Below are positions 4,767 to 37,615 of a stretch of 39,091 nucleotides of DNA, piece by piece. Under the pieces are notes generated by a model. The model was not told where the DNA came from. It saw only the letters and a program-made list of their open reading frames with translations, and searched no databases. How positions within the stretch are numbered: position 1 is the stretch's first letter; each line of letters starts with the position of its first letter. The position numbers and the translations under genes were made by a program. The stretch lies in the IMG/VR virus record IMGVR_UViG_3300042923_001092, positions 1 to 39,091 of that record. One strand, written 5' to 3'. Origin of the DNA: a virus.

Positions 4767-4848
4767 CTAGACCCTGATAGAGGTAGGTATAATTAATTCC
4801 AAATATTAATTTATTAGGATTAAAATATAAATTTCTATCAGGGTCTAG
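4767..4848. repeat. Inverted repeat with a 52-nt spacer, copy 1
   Basis: CTAGACCCTGATAGA (4767-4781) / TCTATCAGGGTCTAG (4834-4848), perfect 15 bp. Confidence 0.9.
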
Positions 4849-4866
4849 ATAAATTGGAGGTTAAAA

Positions 4867-5109
4867 ATGAGATTAAAATTCAAAAACTTTAATTCACCAG
4901 AGGAATTATGTGCCTTTGTTAATGACGATGAAAGTTCTATAAATATCTTTGGTATCTGTCAAGATGAGTTTGGTAAATATGTTTTGTTCTTTGGTTCAAA
5001 TTCTACAGAACGAATAAATAATATAGAAGCAGAACCAAGATTAGATGTAGAAGAATTTTGGGCAAGTAGATATGAACGGAGGAACAATAATGGCGGCGAA
5101 AATCAGTAA
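4867..5109 (+). CDS. Hypothetical 80-aa protein
   Basis: GGAGG RBS; its 3' end overlaps the terminase start. Confidence 0.7.
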   Translation: MRLKFKNFNSPEELCAFVNDDESSINIFGICQDEFGKYVLFFGSNSTERINNIEAEPRLDVEEFWASRYERRNNNGGENQ

Positions 5110-6952
5110 AAAAAGCAAACAAAATGACGTTTTTGCAGAATTATTTAGTAGTTTAGAAAATATGATGAAAGAAGATGACCCTAAAGAAATGTCATTTGGT
5201 TCTGCTTTAAATCAAATGGCTAATTTTTTTGAAACAGAAACTAATAAGCAAATAGATGCTGGCGAAACATTTGATGAAATTTGGGAATTTGAACCAGTTG
5301 ATTCATATACGTTCTGTACAAGCGAAAAATATCTAAACTTAGGAAGTGAGATTTATCCAGTAGTATTACAAGATTTAGCTGACACATTCCCCGGAGACCC
5401 TAAAAATATGAATCCAGAGCACTCTGAAATTATATTTGATGAAGCGATTGGTTCTGGTAAGTCATTCAAGCTTTCTATATTAGCTTCTTATATGGCATAT
5501 AAACTATTATGCCTTAGAAATCCACAAAAATTCTTTAAATTAGCTCCAGGGTCAAAGATAGCTATAATGAACATGTCAGTTTCTGCATCTCAAGCTAAAA
5601 GAGTTGTATTTGGTGAAATCAAAAATAAAATCGACTATAGTCCATGGTTTCAAGATCACTATCCACCGAACCCTAGAATAAGATCAGAATTACAATTTGA
5701 CCCTTCTCCAGAAAGCATGAATAAAAGAGAGATGGGAAGAATCTATAAAAACATTTATATTATACCAGGTTCATCATCAGGTATGGCACCATTAGGATAT
5801 AATCTGTTTTGTGGGATTATAGATGAAGCAACATTATGGAGAGATACTGAAAATAAAGACTATGTAGAAGATGTTTATGATATAATCCGACGAAGAGTAA
5901 CATCTCGTTTTATGGATAAAGGGCTAATAGTTTTAGGTGGATCGCCAATGTATAGTACTGACTTCCTTGAAAGACGAATTAAAGACGTTAAAGACAGAGA
6001 ACTTAAGAATGTAATGGTAAGAAGAAGAAGTCATTGGCATGCTAAATATCCAGACTATAAAGGACCAATGTTTTATTTTCATTTAGAAGACTGTAAAGTA
6101 TTTAAAACAGAAGAAGAAATGCTTTTAGACAGAGATAAGGTAGCTAAAAGAGCTGGTGATAATTGGGAAAATGCAGTAAAGTTATATGATGATCAAATAC
6201 ATCAAATTCCGATGATGTATTATGATGATTTTCATAAAAATCCCGAAGGTTCTAAGCGAGATTTAGGTGGTTGGCCATCAGATGCTATCAGCTCATTTAT
6301 AGAAAACCAATCTATTATAGAAGAAAATATAAATATGGATAGAGTAGACCCAGTAAGAGCACCTTTTCTATTCAAAAAATGGTTTAGGCCAAAAAATAGA
6401 AAAGCTTGGCACGTAATTCATATTGACCTTGGTATTACCGGAGATGCATGTGGTATTTCGATGGGCCATCCTGAAGGTTTTACTGAAGAAGGTGGGGTTC
6501 TAGTGTGGATAGATTTTATAATGAGAATACAGGGCAGTAAAGAAGAGCCTATTCAGATAGAAAATATTCGAGAAATGATTTATAGATTGTCAAAATTAGG
6601 GTTTCCTATTGGATTAATCACGATGGATGGATTTCAAAGTGTCGATAATATCCAGATTTTAAGAAAAAAGGGATATAATACTGAATATTTATCATTAGAT
6701 AGATCGCTTCTTCCCTATGAAGAATGGAAAGCTGCATTAAATGAGCATAGATTAAATATGTATGAACATGAAACATATATTAAGGAAGCTAAAAAGCTTG
6801 AAAAAATCAAAAATAAGAAAATAGATCACCCTAGGGGTGGTTCTAAAGACTGTACAGATGCCGTTGGTGGTGTTACTTATAATTGTAATATAGTAGCACA
6901 TTGGGATCCACCAACAGATGAGGATGATGAAAGTGAAGTTTACAGTTTTTAA
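5090..6952 (+). CDS. terL: Terminase large subunit
   Basis: Walker A EAIGSGKS, Walker B GIIDEA, RNase H-like nuclease motifs HIDLGITGD, MDGFQS and KDCTDAV. Start moved to ATG 5090, which has a GGAGG RBS. Confidence 0.93.
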   Translation: MAAKISKKSKQNDVFAELFSSLENMMKEDDPKEMSFGSALNQMANFFETETNKQIDAGETFDEIWEFEPVDSYTFCTSEKYLNLGSEIYPVVLQDLADTFPGDPKNMNPEHSEIIFDEAIGSGKSFKLSILASYMAYKLLCLRNPQKFFKLAPGSKIAIMNMSVSASQAKRVVFGEIKNKIDYSPWFQDHYPPNPRIRSELQFDPSPESMNKREMGRIYKNIYIIPGSSSGMAPLGYNLFCGIIDEATLWRDTENKDYVEDVYDIIRRRVTSRFMDKGLIVLGGSPMYSTDFLERRIKDVKDRELKNVMVRRRSHWHAKYPDYKGPMFYFHLEDCKVFKTEEEMLLDRDKVAKRAGDNWENAVKLYDDQIHQIPMMYYDDFHKNPEGSKRDLGGWPSDAISSFIENQSIIEENINMDRVDPVRAPFLFKKWFRPKNRKAWHVIHIDLGITGDACGISMGHPEGFTEEGGVLVWIDFIMRIQGSKEEPIQIENIREMIYRLSKLGFPIGLITMDGFQSVDNIQILRKKGYNTEYLSLDRSLLPYEEWKAALNEHRLNMYEHETYIKEAKKLEKIKNKKIDHPRGGSKDCTDAVGGVTYNCNIVAHWDPPTDEDDESEVYSF

Positions 6953-6964
6953 GGAGGGAGTAAA

Positions 6965-8674
6965 ATGGCAGAAAAGATCAGAAAAAATAGTCAGCTAGAT
7001 GGTAATACTAAAGCCACTATAATCAAAGATACATCTGGCGATGCTATAGTTGAACTTTCGACTGAAGATATGCTTACAAGTGTTGTTTTTAAACAAAAAG
7101 AAACTTCTAAAAAGATTAAAAAACCAGTTAATGGAACGAGTAAACAGATTGAAGACGAATTTGTTGACTTATATGGTTCTGATATCATAGAACCCCCATA
7201 CAACCAACTTTTATGGGCTAGTTTAATGGAAACTAATACACGATTAGCAAAGCTAATTAGAACATATGCTAGAAATACTGTTGGTTTAGGTTGGAGAATA
7301 GTTCCCAAAAAGGCAATTACTAAAAAAACTACTGCTAAAGAAAAGAAAGCTATTGAAGAAGAAAAGGAAATGCTCGAAGATTTCTTTAATAATATAAGTG
7401 ATATCTTGCCTTTTGAAGAAATATGTTTTAGAGCAAAAGTTGATGAAGAATCTATGGGTAATGGTTATCTTGAAGTTACAAGAGATTTAAAAGGAAAGCC
7501 TATGCATTTATTTCATATTTCCGGACATACAGTTAGAGTCCTTAGAAATAAAAAAGGATTTGTTCAAATAAGAGATGGCCAGAAAGTTTACTTTAAACTT
7601 TTTAATGGCGATTATGATATGAATTATCTAACTGGAGAAATAGTTGCAAAAGGCGCACTGAATTATGAGGAAAGAGCAACTGAAATTATACCTTTTCAGA
7701 TATATACGCCAAGAGATTCATATTATGGAATACCAAGATATGTAAGTACTGCAGATGCTATAGCAGGAAATAAACTTTCTGCAAGAAGAAATTTGTCTTT
7801 CTTTAAAAATGATGCAACTCCAAGAATGGCAATAACAGTTGCCAATGGACAGCTCACTACTGGATCTATACAAGAAATTAAAGATTTTGTAAATAGTGAA
7901 GGTAAAGGTGTAGATAATGCTCATAGAGCTATGATTATTCAAGCAAAAGGTAAAAATATGGGTGATGCTAGCCAAAATAATGTAAAAATTGATGTAGTAC
8001 CTTTGACTGTAGGACAAACTGACGACGGCTCATTTATTAAATATAGAGAGGCAAATGATGAAGAAATAAGAGAAGCATTTGGTATAGGCGAAGTATTTCT
8101 TGGTTCTAAAGGTACTGTTAATAGGGCTACAGCATCTATCCTTAGAGAAATAACTAATAATCAAGAATTTATACCAGATGCTAAAGTAAAAGAATTTATG
8201 ATTAATCAGACAATCTGCAAAGATCTTGGTGCGAGACTTTGTAAATTAGAATTTGTAAGGCCTTCTGCTCTTGGTGAATTAGATATGGCAGATATTTTTG
8301 CAAGATATTTACAGGGTGGTGGTATTACTCCTAATGATATAAGACATCAACTTGGAAAAGATGAATATTCTGAAGAATGGGCAGATAAACCAATACAGAT
8401 AGCATTAGTTGAATATCAAATGGGATTGTTAGCAGAACAAGGCGCTGCCTTAGGTGGCGATAATGGTAAGACTGATTCTAACAACGACGAAAATAATGAA
8501 GGTAATAATACCGATGAAGATGAAAATAATGACTCTAAAGATGGTTCTAATAAATCTAATAAGGAAAAAAATGAACAAGTTGAGAAGATAAGATTGAAAA
8601 TAATAGATACTGTTCAAAAAATGTTAGATCAAAGTATGACAACAGCAATCATCAGCTTAGATGATGATAACTAA
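6965..8674 (+). CDS. Portal protein
   Basis: Follows terL. Contains GNGYLEV, YYGIP, FFKNDATP, EIREAFGI and GITPNDIR motifs, and an acidic Asn-rich tail. Confidence 0.92.
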   Translation: MAEKIRKNSQLDGNTKATIIKDTSGDAIVELSTEDMLTSVVFKQKETSKKIKKPVNGTSKQIEDEFVDLYGSDIIEPPYNQLLWASLMETNTRLAKLIRTYARNTVGLGWRIVPKKAITKKTTAKEKKAIEEEKEMLEDFFNNISDILPFEEICFRAKVDEESMGNGYLEVTRDLKGKPMHLFHISGHTVRVLRNKKGFVQIRDGQKVYFKLFNGDYDMNYLTGEIVAKGALNYEERATEIIPFQIYTPRDSYYGIPRYVSTADAIAGNKLSARRNLSFFKNDATPRMAITVANGQLTTGSIQEIKDFVNSEGKGVDNAHRAMIIQAKGKNMGDASQNNVKIDVVPLTVGQTDDGSFIKYREANDEEIREAFGIGEVFLGSKGTVNRATASILREITNNQEFIPDAKVKEFMINQTICKDLGARLCKLEFVRPSALGELDMADIFARYLQGGGITPNDIRHQLGKDEYSEEWADKPIQIALVEYQMGLLAEQGAALGGDNGKTDSNNDENNEGNNTDEDENNDSKDGSNKSNKEKNEQVEKIRLKIIDTVQKMLDQSMTTAIISLDDDN

Positions 8675-8730
8675 GTATCAAACTATTTAATTATTATGTG
8701 AACTAAATTTAAAGAAATGGAGATGAAAAT

Positions 8731-9204
8731 ATGGTTAGGGAAGTAGTTCTTAATAAGCAGACTTTTGTAGGATTTGCTTTGGATACTAAACCGTCTGGCA
8801 TAATTGCTTTAAATTCAGAATATATTGAATTTGATGAAGACAATAAAACTATTACTAAATACAAATTCAATGGTATTGACTGGATTCAATTTGAAGTTAA
8901 TACGTATTCCGGTGCATCTACAATAGTTGTTGGGGGAAATGAGGACTTATTGCAGGGAAATATTACTTGTAATGGAGCTAAGCAAGCTATTTCTGCAACT
9001 AGTTTACCTTGTAAAGTAATAACTCTTCAGGCTAATCCAGCTAATACAGCCAATATTTTAGTTGGTAACAGTTTACTTGACGATACACATTATGCATTTA
9101 TTTTAGTGCCCGGCGGAAATATAACACTATCAATTTCTAATGCTAATAAAATATTTATAAAAGGTACGACTTCTGACAAAATAAGTTTTGGTGGTGAAGC
9201 TTAA
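8731..9204 (+). CDS. Putative head-associated beta-rich accessory protein
   Basis: 157 aa with an RBS and a beta-strand pattern (ITLQANPANTANILVG...LVPGGNITL). Lies between portal and protease. Confidence 0.5.
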   Translation: MVREVVLNKQTFVGFALDTKPSGIIALNSEYIEFDEDNKTITKYKFNGIDWIQFEVNTYSGASTIVVGGNEDLLQGNITCNGAKQAISATSLPCKVITLQANPANTANILVGNSLLDDTHYAFILVPGGNITLSISNANKIFIKGTTSDKISFGGEA

Positions 9205-9812
9205 TGCTTTTAAGATCTGGTTTTGGGAACAAAAGAAATAGAATATCTACTCCAGCAGTTTCAAGCCCAAGTATTATAAATCTTTGTATGAATCCTAGTT
9301 TCGAAAGCGATTTTCAAAATTGGGTTTCAGAGATGGAAGATACAAGCCTTGGATGGACTTCTGGAGAAGGTACTGGGATTACTATAGATAGTACAAGACA
9401 TAGTTCTGGTTCTAAATCTATAAAATTAATGGCAGACAGAGTTTTATGTTATGCATCTAGACTGTCTAATGAGATGATTCTTAATCAAACTATTGCAAAA
9501 AAAGTTGCTTTTGAAGCTGATTTTTATTTTGACAATATGGGTGATTATAGAACTTTTGAAACTAAATTGGAAATTTATTATAAAGGGGGAGGCTGGTTAA
9601 CTACTATCCCTGATAATAAATCTTGGCAATCCGGGACTCTTACACCTCCTAGCAATTCGCCAAATGGTGTATGGATGCATTATAATGCGGTTTTAGATAT
9701 GGGAGTCGAACCTATATCTTCATTAAAACTTCATTTTATTCTTACAAATGGATGGACTTCTCAAAAAATATTTGTTAATATTGATAATATTAAAGTTTAC
9801 GAAATTGATTAG
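9204..9812 (+). CDS. Carbohydrate-binding (CBM4/9-like jelly-roll) domain protein
   Basis: NLCMNPSFESDFQNW...IDSTRHSSGSKSIKL...VNIDNIKVYE pattern; TAATG coupling to the upstream gene. Confidence 0.6.
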   Translation: MLLRSGFGNKRNRISTPAVSSPSIINLCMNPSFESDFQNWVSEMEDTSLGWTSGEGTGITIDSTRHSSGSKSIKLMADRVLCYASRLSNEMILNQTIAKKVAFEADFYFDNMGDYRTFETKLEIYYKGGGWLTTIPDNKSWQSGTLTPPSNSPNGVWMHYNAVLDMGVEPISSLKLHFILTNGWTSQKIFVNIDNIKVYEID

Positions 9813-9902
9813 ACAAAAGAATTAAATCAATTATGATTTAATATATAATTACTATTTTAATCTATAATAATGAAAATAATTTTTAAGAAAGGAGGATATA
9901 TA

Positions 9903-11969
9903 ATGGCAACAATAGATATTAATAAATCTTTTGAGTTTGGAGTTAGACCTATAAGTGTTTGGAAAGATGATTCTACAAATAAACATTATGTTAATGCAGT
10001 CGCTTCTGATACAGAAGAAGATTATCATGGTGAAAGATTATCTTTAAATGCTTTAAATGGTCTAGTTAAGTGCATAAATAACAAAGAACCATATGCAGTA
10101 ACATTACTTCCAAGTCATTGGGATGCTTTCGAAATAGGAGTTTGTGAAAGTTCAAAAGTAATAGATAGTCAAGATGTATCAGGAGCTAAAGCATTATCCG
10201 TTGATATTGAACTTGATCTTGATTATCCGGAAGCCAGGTCATTATATAATGATGTCAAAAAAGGCAAATCTAAAAAGCAGCTTTCTATAGGAGGCTATTT
10301 AAATCCTGACAATGAGAATGCTTATTATTGGGAACCAAAGATGAAATATGATGATAATGGAAATTTAGTTCAAGATTGGGTCTTAGTGCTTGATGATGTT
10401 ATTTTAGAGCACATAGCAGTAACAAGAGCAAATAAGGCTGCTAATAATAGATCTGGTTTTGTAGGCACAATTGCCAAGTCTTTAGGACTAGAAAAACCAA
10501 AGGATTTTATCATTAAAGAGCAAGGTTTTAATGTTCTTAACGATACTAAAAATAAGTTCTGGGAAGTTAAAAATTCCGCTAAAAATAAAGGTGAAATTTT
10601 CATTTATGGAGACATTGTTAGCTATAAATGGTGGGATGAAGATGTTTCCGCAAACAGCCTTATTAAAGATGTAAAAGATCTTGGAGATATTTCAGAACTT
10701 GATATTAGAATTAACTCCGGTGGTGGAAGTGTATTTGCTGCTGCTGCTATTTTAAGTTATTTAAGAAGTCATAAAGCATTTAAAACTGTTTATATAGACG
10801 GTTTAGCTGCTTCAGCTGCTTCTGTAATAGCTATGGCTGGAGATAAAATTTGTATGCCTTCTCATGCTATGATGATGATTCACAACCCAGCTACTATTGC
10901 ATGGGGCGATTCAAGAGAAATGAGGAAAACTGCAGATACTTTAGATAAGATTAGAGACTCTATTGTAAATGCATATCAGACAAAATGTGGTAAAGATTAC
11001 GAAACCATTTGCAATTTAATGGATGAAGAGACATGGATGACTGGTAAAGAAGCGGTAGAACAAGGGTTTGCAGATGTTGTTCTTGATAATGTAGAAATAT
11101 CAGCATACTATGAAAAAGATATTTTAAATGTAAACGGTTTGAGCATTGAATCTTCAAGATTCAAGAATAAATCAAAAATTACAGAAATTATGAAATCAAT
11201 AGAAAAGGAGGGAGGCATTAGCATGGCCAAAAACGGTGTAAACAAAGGTATGGCAAATGGATGGGGTAAAGCCGTTAATAATTTCTTAAATCCTGCAAAC
11301 AATGAAAATGAGAAAGCTAAAGCTGAAGAAGCTGCTAAAATCGAAAATGCTAGAAAAGCATTAGAGGTTTTAAATTCGCTAAACGGGCTGGATAACTTAC
11401 CCGAAGATTTAAAAGCTGCTATTAACAGTCTTAATACTGCTCCTGCAGCTAATACTGATGAAGTTGATCCTGTTAATTCCGGTTCAGAAGATCCTGTTGT
11501 AGATCCCGAAAATACTGAAGGTTCTGAAGAACCTGTTACAGAAGATAATCCTACAGACAATCCTGAAAATACTGAGGGATCTGAAGGGCCTGAAACTAAT
11601 CCTGCTACAGAGCCTGAAAACTTTAATCCTGAGTCTTTTAAAGATTCAATTATGGATGAGGTTAAAAACTTAATTAATGGTATTCAGGAAGAAAATAAAA
11701 AATCAATGGAAAGTGTTGGAGCTTCTGTTGGAAAAATTATCGGAGAAGTTGTTAAGCAGCAGCTGGAACCTTTAAATTCCAAAATTTCTGCTATTGAAAA
11801 ATCTGCTGGTGGAAGTAAAAGTTTAAGCGGTCAGGAAAAGCCTGCTGTTACTAAGCAGAAAACCACTACTGAAGATACAGTTGATGAAAGCAACATGTGG
11901 GATGGTTTTATTAAAAACGCACTTCCTACAGATTTTAAAAACAAATATAATGAAACGGAGGAACAATAA
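9903..11969 (+). CDS. Fusion of prohead protease (HK97-type), ClpP-like protease and scaffold
   Basis: N-terminal ASDTEEDYHGERL, PSHW, QLSIGG, LEHIAVT..AAN. Middle INSGGGSV, DGLAASAASVIAMAG, MMIHNP, ETWMTGKEAVEQGFAD. Acidic coiled-coil tail. ATG 9903 has an AAAGGAGG RBS. Confidence 0.85.
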   Translation: MATIDINKSFEFGVRPISVWKDDSTNKHYVNAVASDTEEDYHGERLSLNALNGLVKCINNKEPYAVTLLPSHWDAFEIGVCESSKVIDSQDVSGAKALSVDIELDLDYPEARSLYNDVKKGKSKKQLSIGGYLNPDNENAYYWEPKMKYDDNGNLVQDWVLVLDDVILEHIAVTRANKAANNRSGFVGTIAKSLGLEKPKDFIIKEQGFNVLNDTKNKFWEVKNSAKNKGEIFIYGDIVSYKWWDEDVSANSLIKDVKDLGDISELDIRINSGGGSVFAAAAILSYLRSHKAFKTVYIDGLAASAASVIAMAGDKICMPSHAMMMIHNPATIAWGDSREMRKTADTLDKIRDSIVNAYQTKCGKDYETICNLMDEETWMTGKEAVEQGFADVVLDNVEISAYYEKDILNVNGLSIESSRFKNKSKITEIMKSIEKEGGISMAKNGVNKGMANGWGKAVNNFLNPANNENEKAKAEEAAKIENARKALEVLNSLNGLDNLPEDLKAAINSLNTAPAANTDEVDPVNSGSEDPVVDPENTEGSEEPVTEDNPTDNPENTEGSEGPETNPATEPENFNPESFKDSIMDEVKNLINGIQEENKKSMESVGASVGKIIGEVVKQQLEPLNSKISAIEKSAGGSKSLSGQEKPAVTKQKTTTEDTVDESNMWDGFIKNALPTDFKNKYNETEEQ
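11223..11969 (+). CDS. Nested in-frame scaffold protein (internal start)
   Basis: AAGGAGGGAGG directly upstream of in-frame ATG 11223; E/N/P-rich product of 248 aa. Confidence 0.7.
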   Translation: MAKNGVNKGMANGWGKAVNNFLNPANNENEKAKAEEAAKIENARKALEVLNSLNGLDNLPEDLKAAINSLNTAPAANTDEVDPVNSGSEDPVVDPENTEGSEEPVTEDNPTDNPENTEGSEGPETNPATEPENFNPESFKDSIMDEVKNLINGIQEENKKSMESVGASVGKIIGEVVKQQLEPLNSKISAIEKSAGGSKSLSGQEKPAVTKQKTTTEDTVDESNMWDGFIKNALPTDFKNKYNETEEQ

Positions 11970-11971
11970 CA

Positions 11972-13285
11972 ATGGCTAATGAATTAAATAACAGTCAGGA
12001 AGAAGTCCTGAAGACCATTGAGACTGCTGACTTTGGTAATGGAGGTTTACTTGACCCCAAGCGCCAGAAACAATTTCTTACTTATATAAGGGATTACGGT
12101 AAAATGCTTCCCATGGTAAGATTTGAGAGGCTTTCACAGTCTCAGATGACTCTCGATAAGTTATATATCGGAGAACCTGTTACAGAATCTGTTGAAGAAA
12201 ACAGCAACGCTGCTAATCCTGCCAAAGTAGCTACAAGCCAATTACATTTACAGACAAAGAAGCTGAAATCCAGCTGGAACATTACCACAGAAACCCTCGT
12301 TGATAACATCGAACAGAAGGGTTTTGAAACTACAATGATGCAGGGAATGACCAAAAGAATTTCCACTGATATCGAATTACTGGCTATCCAGGGTGACAGA
12401 ACTAAGTATAACGGTGCAACAGATACATTCGGTCGCTTATTAAAAAGAGCAAACGGCTGGGATGCACTTACAGAATCTGCACATATCTTGGATGTTGGTG
12501 GTGCTACAATTCAGAAGGGTATTTTTGCTGAAATGGTAAGAATGATGCCTCAGCAGTATCTTCAGGATGCTGACTTAAGATGGTTCGTTTCCAAATCTGT
12601 AGCAATTGACTGGATGGATCTTCTGGCTGACAGAGGAACTGCAGTTGGTGATAATGCTCTTAACGGAAACAGTGTATCTCCTTACGGTATTCCATTAGTT
12701 GAAGTTCCTTTACTTCCTGATAATAAGCCTGTTACATCATATTCCGGTAAAGCTGCAGTAGTAATTGGAAATCAGCCCGATCCGTTTGAAATTGTTGCTG
12801 GCGAAAATGATAAGATTAAAATCTCCATAGATGGCGTTACCGCTGTTACTGTAACTCTTAAACCCGGTACACATCGTGTAGGTGCAATTGCGGCTATGAT
12901 TAATGCTACTACAGGCTTGGCAGGTATTGCTTCTGATGATACACATGGTCGTTTGGTTCTTAAATCAAAGACAGTTGGAAATTCATCTTCTATTGCTTTA
13001 ACTTCTATTGCCGCCGATGCTTATGATGAACTTGGGTTATCTGAAGGCACCAATACTGGTACTTCCAGCGGATCCTTAACTACTACAAACGACGGTTCAT
13101 TTATCTGGTTGGCAAATCCTAAGAACTTTATTGCTGCCATGAGAGGTACCACCAGAATTTATACTGAGTTCAACAAGGACTATGACCGCGTTGAAACAGT
13201 TATCTACAATGAAGTTGACTTCTCAGTAGAAAATGATGATGCTATCGTTAAGGCCGTTAACCTTAGAAAACGCGATTTAATCTAA
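11972..13285 (+). CDS. Major capsid protein (HK97 fold) with a ~120-aa inserted domain
   Basis: GGLLDP, ITTETLVDNIE, DIELLAIQGD, YGIPLVEVPLLP and NPKNF motifs. Follows the scaffold and is followed by a terminator. Confidence 0.9.
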   Translation: MANELNNSQEEVLKTIETADFGNGGLLDPKRQKQFLTYIRDYGKMLPMVRFERLSQSQMTLDKLYIGEPVTESVEENSNAANPAKVATSQLHLQTKKLKSSWNITTETLVDNIEQKGFETTMMQGMTKRISTDIELLAIQGDRTKYNGATDTFGRLLKRANGWDALTESAHILDVGGATIQKGIFAEMVRMMPQQYLQDADLRWFVSKSVAIDWMDLLADRGTAVGDNALNGNSVSPYGIPLVEVPLLPDNKPVTSYSGKAAVVIGNQPDPFEIVAGENDKIKISIDGVTAVTVTLKPGTHRVGAIAAMINATTGLAGIASDDTHGRLVLKSKTVGNSSSIALTSIAADAYDELGLSEGTNTGTSSGSLTTTNDGSFIWLANPKNFIAAMRGTTRIYTEFNKDYDRVETVIYNEVDFSVENDDAIVKAVNLRKRDLI

Positions 13286-13310
13286 AGTTAAAAACATATA
13301 GGCCCTACTG

Positions 13311-13350
13311 AAAGGCCATTAGTCTTAAATGGCTAATGGCCTTTTTTATT
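13311..13350 (+). terminator. Rho-independent terminator after the capsid gene
   Basis: AAAGGCCATTAGTC-ttaaat-GGCTAATGGCCTTT followed by TTTATT. Confidence 0.88.
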
Positions 13351-13372
13351 AAGATATTAGGAGGAAAATAAT

Positions 13373-13555: not shown

Positions 13556-13582
13556 AATATAAATTTTAAGGAGGAATAAATA

Positions 13583-14080: not shown

Positions 14081-14085
14081 TAAAT

Positions 14086-14886
14086 ATGGCTATTCTCGCT
14101 TATTCAACAATTAAATCTGTTAGGGAAATGCAAATCTCTGAAGCTAAAATGTCTGATAGCGAGGTGTTAAAGCTAATTCATCAATATTCTGCTTCAGTAT
14201 CAAGATTAGTCAATTCTTGGTTTGTTCCTGTAAACGTAAAGCAGAGGTTTAATGGTGGAGGTAATGTCATTTATACTGGCTTACCTCCAGTTATTAAATT
14301 ATTTAGCGCAAATATAGTTGAGTGGAACCAATCTAGAACCCTTATAGACCCATTAGAATATGATGGCGTAGGTAAAATTATTAGGTTCAAAAAAAGAACT
14401 CAAGAAGGGATTAAGAATATTGAGATCGATGGGCTATTTGGTCATATCGATAATAATAAAGTAGTCCCAGTTAAGACAACTACAGATATATCTCAAGGCT
14501 CTGTTTCGTTTGGAGTTGAAGATGCCTCAGAACTTGAAGAGAGAGATGTATTTATTTTTAATAATAGAGTTATAATTGCTAATTCAATTGATTATGAAAA
14601 TAATACTGTTATAATAGATAAACAATTATCATCTAAAATCATAGAATCTGGATCAGAAACTATATGTTTTGGTTGTGTCCCTTTTGATATTGAAAGAGCA
14701 ATAAATCTTATGATAAAGAATGGTAAAAAATTAGAAAAACTTATTGGTGGTAAATTAAAATCAGAAAAAACAGATGATTATGAGTATGAAGTTTTCCAAT
14801 CCGGAGATATGAGTACCGGTATTCCTGAAGTTGATAGAATATTGCAGACTTATCTTGAAGGTGAAGTAACAATAAATTATTTTTAG
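14086..14886 (+). CDS. Head-tail adaptor/neck protein
   Basis: Position after the capsid genes; AYSTIKSVR..., VPFDIERA, KSEKTDDYEYE and STGIPEVDRILQTY are adaptor-like. Confidence 0.7.
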   Translation: MAILAYSTIKSVREMQISEAKMSDSEVLKLIHQYSASVSRLVNSWFVPVNVKQRFNGGGNVIYTGLPPVIKLFSANIVEWNQSRTLIDPLEYDGVGKIIRFKKRTQEGIKNIEIDGLFGHIDNNKVVPVKTTTDISQGSVSFGVEDASELEERDVFIFNNRVIIANSIDYENNTVIIDKQLSSKIIESGSETICFGCVPFDIERAINLMIKNGKKLEKLIGGKLKSEKTDDYEYEVFQSGDMSTGIPEVDRILQTYLEGEVTINYF

Positions 14887-14896
14887 GAGGGATATT

Positions 14897-18369: not shown

Positions 18370-18846
18370 ATGGCAGTTGAAGCTTATAAGACTAATTACT
18401 ATGACAAATATGCATTTCAAATTGTTATAGGTGGCTTTGTAAGAGCTGGATTTTCAAAAGCTGATGGACTTGAAGAAAGTGCAGAAGTAATTGAATATAA
18501 CGAAGGCGGGCATTTAAGAGCACATAAGAGTCCAGGCAAAATCTCATCTAAAGATGTAACCCTTGAAAGAGGTGAGACTGATGCAATTGACATGTTTAAC
18601 TGGTGGAAACAGGTTGCAAACAGAGCATCAGATTCTGGTGGAGTAGTTGATTCTGATTATAAAAAAGATATTCAGATCATACAGTTAGATAGAGCTGGAA
18701 CGGTAAGGAAGACATGGAATGTATATGGTTGCTGGCCAAGTACATTTGGTGTTGATGACTGGGATGGTGGTTCTTCTGAAAAGCATGTTGAAAAACTCGT
18801 GCTTGCTACAGATGGAATTGAATTTGTTTCAGGAACATCAAAATAG
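18370..18846 (+). CDS. Tail tube protein (T4 gp19-like)
   Basis: AGFSKADGL, EVIEYNEGG, KSPG, VTLERG and WNVYGCWP; follows the sheath. Confidence 0.92.
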   Translation: MAVEAYKTNYYDKYAFQIVIGGFVRAGFSKADGLEESAEVIEYNEGGHLRAHKSPGKISSKDVTLERGETDAIDMFNWWKQVANRASDSGGVVDSDYKKDIQIIQLDRAGTVRKTWNVYGCWPSTFGVDDWDGGSSEKHVEKLVLATDGIEFVSGTSK

Positions 18847-18888: not shown

Positions 18889-18927
18889 CAATGCCTTCAT
18901 ATTTTATTATGAAGGCATTGTTTTATT
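18889..18927 (+). terminator. Terminator-like hairpin after the tube gene
   Basis: Perfect 13-bp stem CAATGCCTTCATA/TATGAAGGCATTG followed by TTTTATT. Confidence 0.75.
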
Positions 18928-18947
18928 ATAATAAGGAGGATTATTCT

Positions 18948-19867: not shown

Positions 19868-19875
19868 GTTGATAA

Positions 19876-23007: not shown

Positions 23008-23011
23008 TAAG

Positions 23012-23461: not shown

Positions 23462-23477
23462 GAGGAGGTGAATAATA

Positions 23478-23771
23478 ATGTCTGTATTGGAAGGTTCTAG
23501 ATATGAAGGAGCTACTGTTTATAGTCACGAAGATAAATATTATATAGGTTCAAGAATAATATTACAATATAAAGAATACCCAGACAATATTATTCATACA
23601 GTATCTGAAAGTGAAAGGCTTGATACTATAGCTTATAAATATTGGAAAAACTCAGAATGGTGGTATATAATCTGTGATTGGAATGATATTTTTAATCCAT
23701 TTGAGCCCTTAGTGGCTGGTACTATTCTGAGTTTACCAAGTTTTAATAGAATTGCAGGAGGTGAGTTATAA
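23478..23771 (+). CDS. LysM-like / P2 gpX-like baseplate protein
   Basis: SRY...HTVSESERLDTIAYKYW...WWYIICDWNDIFNP...GTILSLP. Confidence 0.85.
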   Translation: MSVLEGSRYEGATVYSHEDKYYIGSRIILQYKEYPDNIIHTVSESERLDTIAYKYWKNSEWWYIICDWNDIFNPFEPLVAGTILSLPSFNRIAGGEL

Positions 23772-25282
23772 TGCCAATACCTGAGGCTTATGATCCATTT
23801 TTTTATATAAAAGTAGACGGTAAGTCACTAAATTCTAAGCTTGCTACAAAAATTAGTAAATTCGAATTTGAAGAAATTGATGATAAAACAGATATTCTAA
23901 CATTTATTGTTGACAATCAATCGCTTGAATTTACTGATGAAGATGCATTGGATGTTGGTGGAACAGTCACTTTTCAATTTGGTTATTTAAACAGAAGAGG
24001 TAAAATAAGAAAAGGTATAATTAAAAATTATGAAGGATTTGAAGAAATAAAAATTGAAGTATACCAGACTAAAGTTGGCAGTGCAGATCCGGCAAAACCA
24101 ACTACAAAAACTGCTCCTTCAAAAGTTACTTCAACTCAGTCATCTCCTAAAAAATATACAGTAATTAAAGGTGATAATCTTTCATCTATTGCTAAAAAAT
24201 TCGGTTTATCAAAGTGGCAAGACTTATATGAAGTAAATAAAAGCATAATTGGCAAAAACCCAAACTTAGTTTATCCGGGACAGAAACTTACTATACCTGG
24301 TACTGAAGAAAAAGTTTCATCTGCCACTAAAAAAACAACAACTTCTAAATCAACAAATGTTTCTTCTAATACTTCTAAAAGTTCACCTGCTGTTAAAACT
24401 TCTAATCCTTTAGCTCAAAAATCTAGAGTATGGAAGAAAAAGACATATTCTGAAATAGCAAAAAGTATTGCTACAGAAATGGGATTATTAGCTGATATAC
24501 AGACTACAAAGATAAAATATGATAGTGTTCCCCAAACAAATGAAGACAATATAGAATTTTTAAGAAGATTAGCTAAAAAAATTGGATATACAGTAAATAT
24601 ATATGGAGACTATTTATTTTTTAGAAAACAAGATTATAGTTCAAAAACTCAAAGAACTTTAGTTTATTTTATCGATGGAGCAGGTGAAGTTGAAAAATTT
24701 TCTCCATCGATAAAGACTAGTGGATCTACATCAGCAGCTTCTTCAAGTACAGTCGATCCAGCTTCAAAAAGTGAAGTTAGTAGCAAATCAAATGGTACAA
24801 AAGATACACATTTAGGAAAATACTCATATGTAGTTGATGGTATTACTGGTGAAGAAAAAAGAGTTTTAACTCCAGAATCTTCAGCTTCAAATGACTCTGT
24901 AAAAACTAATACTGATTCAGATACAAGCACTTCTACAAATAGTAAAATGTCATCTTCTGAAAAGAAATGGCAAGAAGCTGAAATAACTTGTGTTGGTATT
25001 CCAGAAATAGAAGCCGGTAAATTAGTAACAATCAAAGGCGTAGGGAAAAGATGGTCTGGAAATTGGTATGTAAAGACAGTTAGACACACGTTAGACAGTG
25101 ATGGTTATAGAACAGTTTTAGAATGTACGCGCGATGCTTCTGGAAAAGCTGCAAAAATATCAGAAGAAGTAGATGGCGCTGTTAATGACACTCCGGCTAA
25201 AACTGATTCGTCTAAAAAAGCTGCTAAAGTAGTTATTGTTGATGGTATTACAGGAAAAGAAACAGTAGGCGAAATGCCTTAA
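23771..25282 (+). CDS. Baseplate hub (late control D / gp27-like) with an inserted LysM domain
   Basis: FQFGY, QTNEDNIEFLRRLAKKIGY, GIPEIEAG, GVGKRWSGNWYVKTVRH; LysM YTVIKGDNLSSIAKKF...NPNLVYPGQKLTIP. Confidence 0.85.
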   Translation: MPIPEAYDPFFYIKVDGKSLNSKLATKISKFEFEEIDDKTDILTFIVDNQSLEFTDEDALDVGGTVTFQFGYLNRRGKIRKGIIKNYEGFEEIKIEVYQTKVGSADPAKPTTKTAPSKVTSTQSSPKKYTVIKGDNLSSIAKKFGLSKWQDLYEVNKSIIGKNPNLVYPGQKLTIPGTEEKVSSATKKTTTSKSTNVSSNTSKSSPAVKTSNPLAQKSRVWKKKTYSEIAKSIATEMGLLADIQTTKIKYDSVPQTNEDNIEFLRRLAKKIGYTVNIYGDYLFFRKQDYSSKTQRTLVYFIDGAGEVEKFSPSIKTSGSTSAASSSTVDPASKSEVSSKSNGTKDTHLGKYSYVVDGITGEEKRVLTPESSASNDSVKTNTDSDTSTSTNSKMSSSEKKWQEAEITCVGIPEIEAGKLVTIKGVGKRWSGNWYVKTVRHTLDSDGYRTVLECTRDASGKAAKISEEVDGAVNDTPAKTDSSKKAAKVVIVDGITGKETVGEMP

Positions 25283-25288
25283 GCATAA

Positions 25289-25372
25289 TTAGAATGCTGA
25301 TAGAGGTATTTATAATTAGTTTTTAATATATTAATATGTATAAAGTTTTATTTATTTCTATAAGCATTCTAA
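25289..25372. repeat. Inverted repeat with a 52-nt spacer, copy 2
   Basis: TTAGAATGCTGATAGA (25289-25304) / TCTATAAGCATTCTAA (25357-25372), 15/16 complementary. Confidence 0.88.
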
Positions 25373-25387
25373 AGGAGGTTTAAAATA

Positions 25388-25918
25388 ATGGATGTGTTAG
25401 ATGTATTTGGAAAATTTGAGTCTCAAGATGATAATAAATTTTTCGGAAAGTTCAGAGCAGTTGTATCAAAAATTGATGACCCGGAAAAATTAGGTAGAAT
25501 AAAAGTTACATGCCCGGATATTTACGGCGATGATGAATCTCCTTGGGCTTGGCCTTGCTTCCCTATTGGTGGTTCTTTAGAAATAGGGTATTTTGGAATA
25601 CCTGAAAAGGGAGCAGGGGTTTGGGTTGAATTTGAGCAAGGTCATACTACAAATCCTATATGGTCTGGATGTTGGTATACTAAACCAAAAAATAAAAATG
25701 AAGTTCCAAAAGAAGCTAAGGATAAATATGGAGACACACAAGTAATAAAAACAAAAACTGGCCATATTATAGAAATTTCAGATAAAAAAGGCGATGAATA
25801 TATACATCTATATAATGGTAAAACTAAGTCATCTGTTAAAATAGAAAAAGATATTACTTTTCATTCAGAAGGTAATGTTATTATAGAAGTTCCCAATGGA
25901 CACGTAGATGTGAGGTGA
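25388..25918 (+). CDS. Baseplate spike, gp5/Vgr OB-fold (gpV-like)
   Basis: GKFRAVV...DPEKLGRIKVTCP...WAWPC...PEKGAGVWVEFEQG...PIWSG. Confidence 0.9.
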   Translation: MDVLDVFGKFESQDDNKFFGKFRAVVSKIDDPEKLGRIKVTCPDIYGDDESPWAWPCFPIGGSLEIGYFGIPEKGAGVWVEFEQGHTTNPIWSGCWYTKPKNKNEVPKEAKDKYGDTQVIKTKTGHIIEISDKKGDEYIHLYNGKTKSSVKIEKDITFHSEGNVIIEVPNGHVDVR

Positions 25919-25922
25919 TAAA

Positions 25923-26267
25923 ATGCCAGCTGTAGCAGTAAAAGGTGGAAGTATTTTAGGTATGACTACTGGTGAGCATGGAGGGCATACTAATCCAAAT
26001 GGTACTCCAATGCATGGACCAGGTACATTAACAGGAACTATTACATCCGGAACAGATAAGTTAAGAATTAATGGTATTTTTGTTGCTCTAGAAGATGAAG
26101 ATACTGAAGAAAGTGATAACTGCGATTCTGATACTGGAAAATTAGGAAATATTGAACATAAATTAAAAGTAAATGGTAAGTCAGTTCAATGCTTAGGAGA
26201 TAATACTAAACCTCATAACGGGACTGCTAAAATATCAACAGGTAATTCTAAAATAACTACTGTATAA
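25923..26267 (+). CDS. PAAR-like spike tip protein
   Basis: MPAVAVKG, ITSGTDKLRING, VNGKSVQCLGD, several His/Cys ligands; follows the spike. Confidence 0.8.
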   Translation: MPAVAVKGGSILGMTTGEHGGHTNPNGTPMHGPGTLTGTITSGTDKLRINGIFVALEDEDTEESDNCDSDTGKLGNIEHKLKVNGKSVQCLGDNTKPHNGTAKISTGNSKITTV

Positions 26268-26277
26268 GGAGGTAAAT

Positions 26278-26646
26278 ATGTCTAAGCTTGGTATAATATT
26301 CCCATTAACTTCTGATTATAAAGGATCAGTTGAATATAATGAAAATTTAATTAATTCAATAGAATCTTCTATAAAACAAATTTTGTTGACTACAAAAGGT
26401 GAAAGACCTATGAATCCTGAATTTGGATGTAATCTTAGAAGATTAAATTTTGAATATGATATAGATATTATAGAAGAATTAGGTAAGCAGTATATAACAG
26501 AGTCTATAGAAGAGTTTGAAACTAGAGTTCAAATAGAAGATATAACATTTTCAAAGAGTGACGATACTATATTTATCCAGTTAGTATATTCAATCAGATA
26601 TTCTAATTTACCATTACAAGCTTTAGATATTCCATATAAGTTATAA
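26278..26646 (+). CDS. Baseplate wedge protein, gp25/gpW-like
   Basis: SIKQILLTTKGERPMNPEFGC...FETRV. Confidence 0.92.
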   Translation: MSKLGIIFPLTSDYKGSVEYNENLINSIESSIKQILLTTKGERPMNPEFGCNLRRLNFEYDIDIIEELGKQYITESIEEFETRVQIEDITFSKSDDTIFIQLVYSIRYSNLPLQALDIPYKL

Positions 26647-26680
26647 TTAATATGAAACAATAAATAAAGGAGGCGATAAA

Positions 26681-28066
26681 ATGGCAATAGATTATACATC
26701 TCGCGATTTTCAATCATTAAAAAGAGACATGATAAATGCTTTATTAGTAAAAGCTCCAGAGCTTTCTAATAAAAATGATTCAGAGTTTGCAGTAGCAATG
26801 ATTGAACTTTTTGCGTATGTAGGCGATTTGTTATCATATGCATTGGACAGATATAAAAACGAGGTTTATTTACCTTCTGCTATTCAGAAAGAAAATGTTT
26901 CTAAAATATGCAGTATGTTAGACTATAGACTTTATAACTATGAACCATCAAAAGTCTTATTAACATTTTCTATAATAGAGCCTCATGATAAACGTATCAT
27001 TATACCGGCAAAAACAACATGTATGACAGAAGGTATGAGCCCTGTAGTATTTGAAACTGATGAGATTTCTTTTATTGAAATAGGAGAAACGTCAGTAACG
27101 ATAAAAGCTACTCAAGGAGAAACTCATGAAGAAATACTTGGATATAGCGATGGTTCTTCAAATCAGGAATATAATTTGACTTATTCTCAAGTATTAGATG
27201 GTATTCAGATATTTGTAGAAAGCGAATCATATACTGAAATTGATAACTTTATTAATAGCAATAAGGATAGCAAATATTTTGTAGTTGAAAGATCTGGAGA
27301 TAAAAAATCAAAAATATCATTTGGAAATGGTGTAAATGGTTATATTCCAGAAGAAAATTATCAAATACTTGCTTCTTATAGAGTTGGCGGCGGGTTAGTT
27401 GGAAACGTAAGTATGAATTCTATAAATTCGATAATTGATCAAATATATGATGAAGACGGTGATATGGTTGATGTATCGGTTACAAATGAAGAAGATGCTA
27501 CTGGTGGATTAGATGAAGAATCAATAGCTTCAGCTAAAGCTAAAGCCCCAGCTCAAGTTTATACATTGTGGAGGGCAGTTACTAAAGAAGATTTTGTTAA
27601 ATTAGCTCTTACTATTTCAGACGTTCAGCAAGCAGTCGCTATATTAGATTCAGTATCTAGTAGTACTACAGTTTATCTTTATATTAAATTATTAAATAGA
27701 GATGATATACCAACTGTAAGATTACAAGAACTATATGATTTTTTTAATGAAAGAAAGTTAATAGGAGTTGTAGTAATAATAAATGAACCAGTTTATAGAG
27801 AAGCAGTTGTTAATATAAATGTACTTGCTCATACAGGGTATTTAAACTCAGAAGTTAAAACTAAAATTGAAGATTATATTAATCAAAATTATACAGCTGG
27901 TTCATTAGGATTTGGAGAGCAGATTTTAGATGGTGAAATAGTAGATGAATTAATGGATTGGGATGAAATAAAAAATGCAAGAGTTACAATAAACAATGGT
28001 GAAACTTTAGAAAATGAAATCATTAAGATAGGAAGTTTAAATATTGTAGTAACAGGAGGCAAATAA
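26681..28066 (+). CDS. Baseplate J / gp6-like wedge protein
   Basis: DYTSRDF, ELFAYVGDLLSY, FGNGVNG, YRVGGGLVGNV, ATGGLDEES and RAVTKEDF. Confidence 0.92.
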   Translation: MAIDYTSRDFQSLKRDMINALLVKAPELSNKNDSEFAVAMIELFAYVGDLLSYALDRYKNEVYLPSAIQKENVSKICSMLDYRLYNYEPSKVLLTFSIIEPHDKRIIIPAKTTCMTEGMSPVVFETDEISFIEIGETSVTIKATQGETHEEILGYSDGSSNQEYNLTYSQVLDGIQIFVESESYTEIDNFINSNKDSKYFVVERSGDKKSKISFGNGVNGYIPEENYQILASYRVGGGLVGNVSMNSINSIIDQIYDEDGDMVDVSVTNEEDATGGLDEESIASAKAKAPAQVYTLWRAVTKEDFVKLALTISDVQQAVAILDSVSSSTTVYLYIKLLNRDDIPTVRLQELYDFFNERKLIGVVVIINEPVYREAVVNINVLAHTGYLNSEVKTKIEDYINQNYTAGSLGFGEQILDGEIVDELMDWDEIKNARVTINNGETLENEIIKIGSLNIVVTGGK

Positions 28067-28067
28067 A

Positions 28068-29960
28068 ATGGATAAGGATTTTTTATACAATAGTTTGCCT
28101 GAAATATATAGGACTTTAGATGTTGATCAAAAATTAATTCTTAAAAGATTTTTAGAAGCAATACAAGAAGGCGGAGCAGAACCAATGCTTGACGCTATTG
28201 TTGAATTTGCTAATATAAATAATATTGACAAATTAGACGAAGAACAATTAAGGCTTTTAGGTAGAACATTTGGTTATGAATATAATGAAAATCTATCATT
28301 ATTTAATCAAAGAAGACTTATTAAAAATCTTATAGTAATATACAAAAGAAAAGGTACTAATTCTTCTGTAATTTATGTGACAAGAGAAATAACAGAATTT
28401 GACGCCGAAATAGTACCATTAATGAACAAAATGTTTAAAACTTGGTCTAATAAAAATCATATGGAGATACCGGGGTATGAATTATCCAAGACTTTTACTA
28501 GTTTTGGAGATACACAGTCACATTATTTACCTGGTACTAAATATTCAAAGACTAATATATTCTTAAAGCTTATTCCATTATTTGATATTGGACTTCAATT
28601 TGAAAGAAGTTTAGCTTTAAGTGAAATACTTCAAATGCTATTACCAGTTTATACAAAAGCATTTTTACTTCTATCGAGTAATGAAGGTGATGAAGCATTA
28701 GATGTAAAAGTCGATGAAAGTAAAGACAGATTATCAATTTATCAAGAAGAAACAGATTATACTATCAATGCTGATATTGAATATTTAAATATAAATATAG
28801 ATATAATTGCATCTATTGAAGAAAATTCAAATAATAAACATATAGAAGATTCAGAAGTGACTGCAATTAGGTTTTCACCAGACCAGTATGATGTAAGCAC
28901 ACAGAATTTTAATGACGATTTTGAACATTTTAGATTTGGAGAACTTGGAGAGTCTGTAACTTCAAATCTTGAAGAATCTGATGATATTTCTTCAATTCAA
29001 TTTAAAACAGAAGATGAAACAAAAAATTCTATCAATTCTACAACTACAGAAACAAATGAAGATACACATATTAAGTTTTCAGAATTGATAGAGGATGAAT
29101 ATACAACCAACAAGCAAGAAGACGGAGATTTTATTTTTATTAATTCATTAGATTCAGAAGATTTAAGTTCTATTTCCAGCTTAACAAGTGAAAGTGATAA
29201 TATGATAATATCTTCTGATGATATAGAAGTTTCTAATACTTTGGCAGAACACGATGGTATTGACATGGTTAGAAATAATAATGAAATAATGGTTTTATTT
29301 AGCGAAGCAAATCCTATTAAAATTACTAGAATAGAAGGAAGTAGTAGACAAGATACTGTTATTTATGACCCTGCAACACAAGTTCCTATAGTTTCTGCTT
29401 CACATTTTAATATAATATCAAGCGATGGAGATACTTTAAGTGATTCTGTAAATGTTCCGATAGACTTAAGATCAATGCCAAATGGCACTAAAGATACATA
29501 TGACATAGTAAATGGAACAGGTATTAAAGCAAAAAGAATAAATACTATTTTATTTGATGGTAGTGCAGATGAAAATTGGATAAAAGCTCAGATAGGTACT
29601 GGAAGTAGGTGGAGATTTTATATTTCTATAGCTGATAAAAAAATTAATGCTGCAGCTGATAGTATTTTATGCGATAGATTAAGACCTGCAGCATTTAACC
29701 TAGCCAGTCCTCCGACTTCACCATCAATATCCGGACACAATACAGTAAGTACCATTAATATATTTGGTACAATGTTTGACTCGATGTCTTTGACAGATTT
29801 TAGATCTTACATTTCCTTATATCCTTTGCTTGTGCAATATGAAACTTTAACTACTACTACAGAAATAGTAGGAGATTTAATTGTTAGCGGTTATGCTGAT
29901 GCAACATATCTTTCGACAGATTCAGATCCTGAAGTAAAATTTTATATAAGATATCAATAA
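28068..29960 (+). CDS. Baseplate protein with a P2 gpI-like N-terminus and an acidic extension
   Basis: FLYNSLPEIYR..D, LKRFL and IYKRKGT; D/E/S-rich middle; beta-rich C-terminus. Confidence 0.75.
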   Translation: MDKDFLYNSLPEIYRTLDVDQKLILKRFLEAIQEGGAEPMLDAIVEFANINNIDKLDEEQLRLLGRTFGYEYNENLSLFNQRRLIKNLIVIYKRKGTNSSVIYVTREITEFDAEIVPLMNKMFKTWSNKNHMEIPGYELSKTFTSFGDTQSHYLPGTKYSKTNIFLKLIPLFDIGLQFERSLALSEILQMLLPVYTKAFLLLSSNEGDEALDVKVDESKDRLSIYQEETDYTINADIEYLNINIDIIASIEENSNNKHIEDSEVTAIRFSPDQYDVSTQNFNDDFEHFRFGELGESVTSNLEESDDISSIQFKTEDETKNSINSTTTETNEDTHIKFSELIEDEYTTNKQEDGDFIFINSLDSEDLSSISSLTSESDNMIISSDDIEVSNTLAEHDGIDMVRNNNEIMVLFSEANPIKITRIEGSSRQDTVIYDPATQVPIVSASHFNIISSDGDTLSDSVNVPIDLRSMPNGTKDTYDIVNGTGIKAKRINTILFDGSADENWIKAQIGTGSRWRFYISIADKKINAAADSILCDRLRPAAFNLASPPTSPSISGHNTVSTINIFGTMFDSMSLTDFRSYISLYPLLVQYETLTTTTEIVGDLIVSGYADATYLSTDSDPEVKFYIRYQ

Positions 29961-29980
29961 TAAATAAACTAAACATTATA

Positions 29981-30058
29981 AAACCCTTATAGAGCTATTA
30001 AAAATAAAATTAAACATAAAAATACAACATAAATAATTTAATCAATCTATAAGGGTTT
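29981..30058. repeat. Inverted repeat with a 52-nt spacer, copy 3
   Basis: AAACCCTTATAGA (29981-29993) / TCTATAAGGGTTT (30046-30058), perfect 13 bp. Confidence 0.88.
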
Positions 30059-37614: not shown

Positions 37615-37615
37615 T

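Follow-up and report, generated by a model that had tools for sequence, protein, structure and literature searches.

To our knowledge, few large lytic phages of Gram-positive-like hosts, among them SPO1, phi29 and the kayviruses, have had their temporal control worked out in detail. Among more general arrangements that invite comparison with the locus described here are class II activator sites, which are centred near -41.5 and overlap the -35 region (CRP and FNR class II sites, PhoB boxes, MarA/SoxS class II sites), and the PeSL cassettes of T4-like phages, which Arbiol et al. (2010) are said to have described as a promoter plus stem-loop repeated at gene boundaries. We analysed the first 39 kb (39,091 nucleotides, hereafter referred to as the window) of IMG/VR virus record IMGVR_UViG_3300042923_001092, a genome of 107,581 bp in total with direct terminal repeats and a G+C content of 30.8%. 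The window contains three elements of ~84 bp, each made of two inverted 16-bp boxes that lie 52 bp apart with an AT-rich, promoter-like centre between them. Judged from their sequences, these elements form a cis-element family that is real and conserved, has a geometry exact to the base pair and appears to be undescribed. Our preferred, still tentative, reading is that they may represent a third, late class of phage promoter, in which a box centred near -40, as in SPO1, would be supplemented with a mirrored box downstream.

SPO1 late promoters follow the consensus CGTTAGA-N17-19-GATATT, as cited in PMC3601020, and depend on gp33 and gp34. The elements resemble them in the end of the box, (G/T)nTAGA, in an xATAT-type -10 hexamer and in their position before structural operons, and the two phages have in common sigma-like proteins of their own, a temporal cascade and probably modified DNA. 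They differ in that box and hexamer are here 20 bp apart, the 16-bp box contains two TAGA motifs, a mirrored box lies 27 bp past the -10 hexamer and the sigma homology is weak. Kayvirus late promoters are few, have a long -10 box, TGTTATATTA, and no -35 element, and presumably require a phage factor (PMC7698491). The likeness here resides in the small number of late promoters, their restriction to the morphogenesis block and an extended AT-rich -10 region; the difference is that kayvirus promoters have neither an upstream box nor an inverted repeat. The 20-bp spacing, the double box and the mirrored box at about +21 to +36 therefore set the element apart from both the SPO1-type and the kayvirus promoters. 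As in class II activation, a 16-bp box at about -40 would take the place of the -35 hexamer at a fixed distance from the -10 motif, and direct sub-repeats one helical turn apart are reminiscent of PhoB/OmpR sites; the sequence of the box is nevertheless unrelated, an activator is only hypothetical here and a second, inverted box would fall within the transcribed leader. In PeSL cassettes, finally, the stem-loop stands beside a host-type early promoter, whereas here the promoter-like core sits inside the repeat and the class would be late and phage-specific.

The anatomy of the three elements can be read directly from the DNA (Table 1). An original prediction made from the window alone had listed three inverted repeats with 52-nt spacers, and the arms, coordinates and spacers were all verified: the distance from ...ATAGA to TCTAT... 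is 52 nt in each of the three copies. Both halves of the element, when read inward, follow the same plan, namely a 16-bp box yTAGA(A)CCCTKnTAGA, 17 variable nucleotides, CC at spacer positions 18-19 and a TAATAT-like hexamer at positions 20-25; the box itself consists of two TAGA sub-sites 10-11 bp apart. Given that 52 equals 2 x 26, with 20 + 6 positions in each half, the full element looks like two mirrored units joined at the dyad. Copy 1 precedes an 80-amino-acid open reading frame (ORF) and TerL, copy 2 a gp5/VgrG-like hub gene (PF04717) and copy 3 the baseplate-wedge and fibre genes, in agreement with the earlier assignment of the copies to the terminase block, the spike gene and the fibre genes.

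Conservation was assessed in four genomes, designated G0 (the record studied), G001 and G002 (relatives from IMG/VR) and L144 (a metagenome fragment). TerL of G0 is 82-83% identical to that of G001 (111 kb) and G002 (42.6 kb), and 80% identical to that of L144, which was retrieved in a metagenome scan; about ten further relatives of the hub gene (P0002-P0015) are found at 47-71% identity. Among the phages sharing element sites, the TerL and hub proteins are 53-83% identical. The 52-nt spacer is present before the terminase operon of G001, G002 and L144, before the hub gene of G001 and G002, and in the copy-3-like element of G002, while an additional copy, located before a kinase/aldo-keto-reductase/radical-SAM operon, has a spacer of 51 nt in G0 (54.1 kb) and 52 nt in G001. 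All seven orthologous full copies, from the two IMG/VR phages and the metagenome fragment, thus have 52 nt, and the constancy seen in the window extends to its relatives. When these seven were aligned with the three copies of the window and the G0 copy at 54k (11 copies in total), the box-to-box distance proved exact in 10 of the 11, and the inner TAGA stood at a constant distance from the -10-like motif in 11 of 11, the lone indel (G0 54k, spacer of 51) falling 3' of the -10-like motif. Indels do arise in the DNA beside the elements, as indicated by the distance from the right box of copy 1 to the ATG, which ranges from 18 to 22 nt among genomes with the spacer fixed.

Sequence identity is confined to discrete blocks. 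In the four orthologues of copy 1, the left and right boxes have mean pairwise identities of 0.90 and 0.82, respectively, and spacer positions 18-33 one of 0.73, as opposed to 0.34-0.46, a near-random value, for the DNA between the blocks; the central block of the copy 1 orthologues is CCTAATATAAAT, with its offset unchanged. The corresponding values for three orthologues of copy 2 are 0.79 (left box), 0.58 (centre) and 0.44 (right box), and the right box of copy 2 shows no conservation in the orthologues. This distribution of identity bears on the idea that the elements are selfish, in the manner of miniature inverted-repeat transposable elements (MITEs), or merely a family of chance or neutral palindromes. 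Their short length, terminal inverted repeats and several dispersed copies are MITE-like features, yet the elements occupy orthologous positions in three or four genomes, their boxes have been kept while the spacers diverged (identity 0.34-0.47), no target-site duplications are found beside copies 1-3 and no further copies emerged from 2.9 million viral contigs; we consider this origin very improbable. G0 contains 46 perfect inverted repeats (arms of at least 11 nt, loops of 20-120 nt) compared to 3-13 in Markov shuffles, and this excess, together with the recurrence of the 52-nt distance in relatives, indicates that the pattern is more than chance.

The search of the 2.9 million IMG/VR viral contigs with the strict pattern CCCTKNTAGA-N47-57-TCTANMAGGG returned 20 loci, among which copy 1 of G001 was the only family member and nine matches with a 50-nt spacing represented one unrelated conserved sequence; the looser pattern ATAGAGNTA-N44-52-TCTATMAG returned at least 118 stretches from IMG/VR, nearly all of them chance matches. 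GenBank phages yielded no match by megablast, the best TerL match by tblastn being 32% identical, and TerL relatives at 35-44% identity displayed no comparable inverted repeat ahead of their terminase gene. Rfam produced no match to the window at the gathering threshold. The family would thus appear to be confined to a small clade of soil phages, all of them uncultured, and the earlier proposal of an undescribed cis-acting system is consistent with the Rfam result, the distance to GenBank phages and the small size of this clade.

The polarity of copies 1 and 2 is directly apparent: in all genomes both lie on the coding strand and are followed, after 15-22 nt, by the ribosome-binding site or ATG of the operon's first gene. 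The conserved -10-like motif occupies spacer offset 20-25. The original prediction had pointed to a TATAAT at a common offset in copies 1 and 2 and to a TTGCTA 18 nt upstream of that in copy 1; both are present (TATAAT at spacer positions 7-12, corresponding to 4788-4793 and 25311-25316; TTGCTA at 4764-4769), and G0 alone has the TATAAT at offset 7-12, which the orthologues lack. With the hexamer placed at spacer positions 20-25, the sequence in the -35 position is TAGAAT or TAGAGG, for comparison with host sigma-A promoters, in which a TTGACA-like -35 and a TATAAT-like -10 stand 16-18 bp apart.

The distribution of other promoters in the genome is suggestive of the function of the family. Early-class promoters (TTTACA-N17-TATAAT) are found in the intervals 0-2 and 84-107 kb and in front of a zinc-finger sigma gene, and middle-class promoters (GTTAAT-N15-TGATATAAT) at 41-88 kb. 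The structural block, which extends over 34 kb (4.8-39 kb), contains no clean intergenic promoter of the early or middle class, and sigma-70-type matches in this block occur at chance level (82 versus 85, and 81 versus 88). As had been claimed, the elements occupy rare gaps in a tightly packed block: copies 1-3 fill three of its four clearly non-coding gaps of more than 100 nt, the fourth being 37615-37750. A fixed 20-bp box-to-hexamer unit placed before late operons, in a block with no other recognisable promoters, is best read as a late promoter.

We note two sigma-like genes in G0: a SigB/F/G-like gene at 89477-90196 (Sigma70_r2, 64 bits) and a divergent gene with a C2H2 zinc finger at 50433-51173. 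Homology to sigma factors is weak (PHROG E = 7.5e-5). The middle-class promoter at 88396 lies ~1 kb upstream of the SigB/F/G-like gene, a single ORF (88443-89459) standing between them. The -35 motif of the middle class, GTTwAw, and its 15-bp spacing resemble those of sigma-B-type promoters, suggesting that the SigB/F/G-like sigma factor reads the middle class.

If the elements are late promoters, the functional unit would comprise the 16-bp box, 17 variable bp, CC and a -10 hexamer of the TAnnnT type (TAATAT). A transcription start ~7 nt after the hexamer would place the centre of the box near -40, a position suited to a class II activator site or to the part of the -35 region that a phage sigma factor recognises. 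Host RNA polymerase would be brought to these units by one of the two phage sigma-like proteins, with or without a box-binding factor, the target operons being those running from terminase to tail and those of the baseplate and the fibres. The mirrored box would be an accessory part. It lies 27 bp past the -10 hexamer, a position that would correspond to about +21 to +36, immediately ahead of the ribosome-binding site, and only copy 1, at the border of the early and late genes, has kept it strictly. It might provide a second site for the same protein, serving to clamp or time the promoter, it might belong to a leftward unit, or it might be the partner in an RNA hairpin that would form in read-through RNA and not in RNA begun inside the element. 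We infer promoter activity, the acting factor and what the right box does from the arrangement of these motifs.

Several observations weigh against such a late promoter. The -10 hexamers of G0 copy 3 and G002 copy 2 are poor, and the G0 54k and G001 90k sites have their better box and TAATAT on the minus strand, facing against the genes. Similarly, the orthologues of copy 3 carry a minus-strand box only, although 154 of the 160 ORFs of G0 are encoded on the plus strand, and copies of the box occur inside genes, far from start codons, at 14334 and 70526. The spacing of 20 bp departs from the 17-19 bp of SPO1, the assignment of a sigma factor is guesswork, and a simple promoter leaves the exact distance to the right box and the compensating changes in the arms unexplained.

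Half-units, consisting of a box and a centre, are also found without a partner box. At the copy 3 site of G001 and G002, the minus-strand box is accompanied by CC/AATATA or TAATGG at the family offset, and the minus-strand half at 90k in G001 differs from the left half of G001 copy 2 at only two of ~45 positions. The box-like site at 14334 has its orthologous place occupied in both relatives, with the -10-like motif out of register. The box at 70526 of G0 is identical at 15 of 15 positions to the copy 1 box of G001 and G002 and is kept in G001, and it too stands without a partner.

These half-units, and the symmetry of the full element, raise the alternative that the ~84 bp, with their AT-rich and bendable centre, form a dyad-symmetric platform wrapped or clamped by a multimeric or architectural protein without being a promoter themselves; as part of the same proposal, the platform would regulate neighbouring genes or serve in replication initiation at an unwinding centre. 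Such a role would account for the box-to-box distance being exact in all but one of the aligned copies, for the presence of CC at positions 18-19 and of a TAAT-like motif in both halves, symmetrically about the dyad, for the persistence of the TAGA sub-sites (four per element) where the remainder of the arm has diverged, and for the orientation of half-units being independent of the gene strand. To these may be added an early-promoter survey in which AATAGAA or TTCTATT was found at a fixed place in the spacer between -35 and -10 in 15 of 17 promoters in G0 and 12 of 17 in G001, so that an ATAGA/TCTAT core, in either orientation, is common to both types of site; the two G0 early promoters without it are that at 50323, before the zinc-finger sigma gene, and the leftward one at 1806. 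Against the platform, copy 2 orthologues retain the left box and the centre and not the right box (0.44), half-sites also stand alone, and the centres of the boxes, being 68 bp or ~6.5 helical turns apart, would present themselves on opposite faces of the helix. No candidate protein was found either, a search of the genome for Xre-type helix-turn-helix domains having matched only sigma region 4 and produced no box-binding candidate. GC skew is uniform, with no switch at the elements and no hint of an origin, and nothing supports an origin of replication. On balance, we regard a pure protein platform as rather unlikely.

The ATAGA core common to early-promoter spacers and paired boxes hints at a single DNA-binding factor. 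By extension, one phage protein might read ATAGA both in early promoters, causing their shut-off, and in the paired boxes, with read-through RNA folding and being destroyed while RNA started in the element escapes. We hold this more elaborate scheme to be doubtful; if it were true, late genes would be insulated and switched on by a compact, base-pair-exact timing device.

The complementarity of the arms had led to the further suggestion that the elements act as RNA, or single-stranded DNA, processing stems. An RNA hairpin would place a 13-18-bp stem in read-through transcripts, where it could be a substrate of host RNase III or a stability or insulator element, and it might coexist with a promoter. 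RNA begun inside the element would be spared for want of the 5' arm, a logic of the lambda sib type. In its favour, stable folds are predicted for the three G0 copies (-35, -22 and -17 kcal/mol for copies 1-3, with z = -8.5, -3.5 and -6.8), and the copy 1 hairpin is strong in all four genomes. Within G0 the arms are near-perfectly complementary and the differences between copies are compensating (ATGC/GCAT versus ACCC/GGGT), as they are among orthologues of copy 1 (A-T in G0, T-A in L144). Over the 11 copies, the covariation score reaches 0.249 versus 0.197 in shuffles (15 of 500 shuffles scored higher). Copy 1, moreover, marks the early/late boundary, and no terminator separates it from the upstream genes. 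Conserved intergenic hairpins are likewise found between operons of lytic phages in the form of the RNase III hairpins of T7 and SP82 and of lambda sib retroregulation, a further similarity being that the hairpin would be complete only in transcripts from upstream.

On the other side, dinucleotide shuffles of the 52-nt spacers fold just as well as the spacers themselves (mean z of +0.15 and +0.07 on the two strands), so that RNA structure does not account for a spacer of exactly 52 nt and the constraint on length applies to the geometry of the DNA instead of to an RNA fold. A covarying inner stem in the spacer was rejected, the spacers being no more stable than shuffles; its appearance is due to the CC at positions 18-19 of both mirrored halves. 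Orthologues of copies 2 and 3 show no fold (z of about 0), yet those with two boxes keep the 52-nt geometry. The claim of covarying arms stands within G0 and only weakly across the family, where paired cells amount to 76% versus 72% in shuffles; the perfecting of quasi-palindromes by template switching could, besides, yield compensating changes without selection. G-U pairs favour neither strand consistently, the minus strand folding better in copy 1 of G001 and copy 2 of G002. No RNase III gene was found in the phage genome, and cleavage would therefore need a host enzyme. In contrast to known RNase III sites, finally, the stem encloses 52 unstructured nucleotides with a promoter-like centre, pairing is lost in several orthologues, and the loop length is invariant, which RNase III does not require. 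RNase III stem-loops call for a largely continuous double-stranded helix of about 20 bp or more that compensatory change has kept. We consider this RNA-level reading unlikely.

An intrinsic terminator was considered and rejected, in line with the earlier remark that terminators do not have such loops: such terminators have a GC-rich stem, a loop of 3-8 nt and a U-tract right behind the stem, whereas here the loop is 52 nt long, no T-run follows the right arm and the terminator scan was silent at the elements. Elsewhere in the window, a terminator-like hairpin follows the major capsid gene (11972-13285) at 13300-13360, and a strong bidirectional one, with a 13-bp stem and T-runs on both strands, is located at 18889-18920, where it overlaps the start of the ORF at 18891, the preceding ORF ending at 18846.

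A promoter-like segment flanked by inverted repeats is also what would be expected of an invertible promoter micro-switch with the 52 bp between the repeats as its flipping segment. The original prediction had seen no recombinase in the window, and this result was extended to the whole 107.6-kb genome, where searches for serine and tyrosine recombinases with PF00239 and PF00589 gave no match at E <= 1, the controls being positive. A length of 52 bp is furthermore far below that of known invertible segments, and the orientation of the centre is the same in all orthologues. A 21.7-kb Logan contig with a depth of ~97 covers both copy 2 and copy 3 in a single orientation, and no joint changes strand there; this check used contigs from two soil DNA runs, which showed no useful variant at the elements, and contigs drop rare variants. 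Inversion is, in our opinion, barely credible. Of the four options that had been put forward for the elements, late promoters and bipartite protein-binding sites, or maybe both, fit the observations, invertible switches do not, and the data speak weakly for RNA or single-stranded DNA processing stems.

Table 1. Coordinates of the paired-box elements and of related motifs; G0 denotes positions in the whole record.
Feature	Position	Strand	Remarks
Copy 1, inverted-repeat arms	4767-4781 / 4834-4848		15/15 complementary
Copy 2, inverted-repeat arms	25289-25304 / 25357-25372		15/16 complementary
Copy 3, inverted-repeat arms	29981-29993 / 30046-30058		13/13 complementary
Copy 1, left box GCTAGACCCTGATAGA	4766..4781	+	two TAGA sub-sites 10 bp apart
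Copy 1, central block	4799..4814	+	CC at 4799-4800, -10-like AAATAT at 4801-4806 (spacer 20-25), then AT-rich to the dyad
Copy 1, right box TCTATCAGGGTCTAGA	4834..4849	+	left box inverted; ends 17 nt before ATG 4867
Host-type promoter match TTGCTA-N18-TATAAT	4764..4793	+	10/12 match; overlaps copy 1 left box; G0-specific
Copy 2, left box TTAGAATGCTGATAGA	25289..25304	+	11-bp period
Copy 2, G0-specific TATAAT	25311-25316	+	spacer positions 7-12
Copy 2, -10-like TAATAT	25324..25329	+	spacer positions 20-25
Copy 2, right box TCTATAAGCATTCTAA	25357..25372	+	abuts AGGAGG ribosome-binding site of hub gene, ATG 25388
Copy 3, left arm AAACCCTTATAGA	29981..29993	+	central motif weak in copy 3
Copy 3, right arm TCTATAAGGGTTT	30046..30058	+	sole box surviving in relatives
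Box-like site CTAGAACCCTTATAGA	14334..14349	+	within ORF 14086-14886; E = 0.078; candidate, without matching right box
Box copy CCAGACCCTGATAGA	G0 70526-70540 (L156:11526-11540)		SbcC/Rad50-like gene, coiled-coil part
Early promoters from the AATAGAA/TTCTATT survey, examples	window 574, 1876; G0 85519, 87112, 95547, 103710, 106244, 107028		

Other repeats and box-like sequences were encountered in the genome. A sub-family resembling the right box, TCTATmAGnG(T)TCTAAA(A)TAGG, is intergenic and maps to the early and middle regions (G0 39563, 54177, 84519 and 103584); 49 nt upstream of the site at 84519 there is a degenerate partner box. The longest inverted repeat of the window, at 1767-1915, has 42-nt arms that are 81% complementary and lie 65 nt apart, and corresponds to back-to-back early-class promoters directed to the left toward ORF 1330-1704 and to the right toward ORF 1933-2127. 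The gap before the gene at 37751 is filled by an inverted repeat (37616-37732) with perfect 15-nt arms, TGGAATAAATTTACT, 87 nt apart, the sequence of which is unrelated to the 52-nt family. A different inverted repeat, CTTTCTAAAATAGAT, with a 51-nt spacer, lies near a GAGCTC-rich non-coding island at G0 100879-100959; its counterpart in G001 (reverse strand, 29693-29767), GCTCTAAAATAGA, has a 49-nt spacer, and its spacer length thus varies, unlike that of the 52-nt family.

Altogether, the comparison of genomes points to a solid cis-element family, the function of which we infer, and the elements most likely represent a new architectural variant of phage late promoters. A clade of uncultured soil phages thereby appears to display three separable promoter classes, the late one having an unusual paired-box architecture. 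If confirmed, the late class would supply synthetic biology with a compact orthogonal promoter and perhaps also the factor belonging to it, and would yield an annotation rule for late operons in related metagenomic phages. It would also provide a test case of how a mirrored downstream site, or a hairpin restricted to read-through RNA, may sharpen the transition between early and late gene expression.

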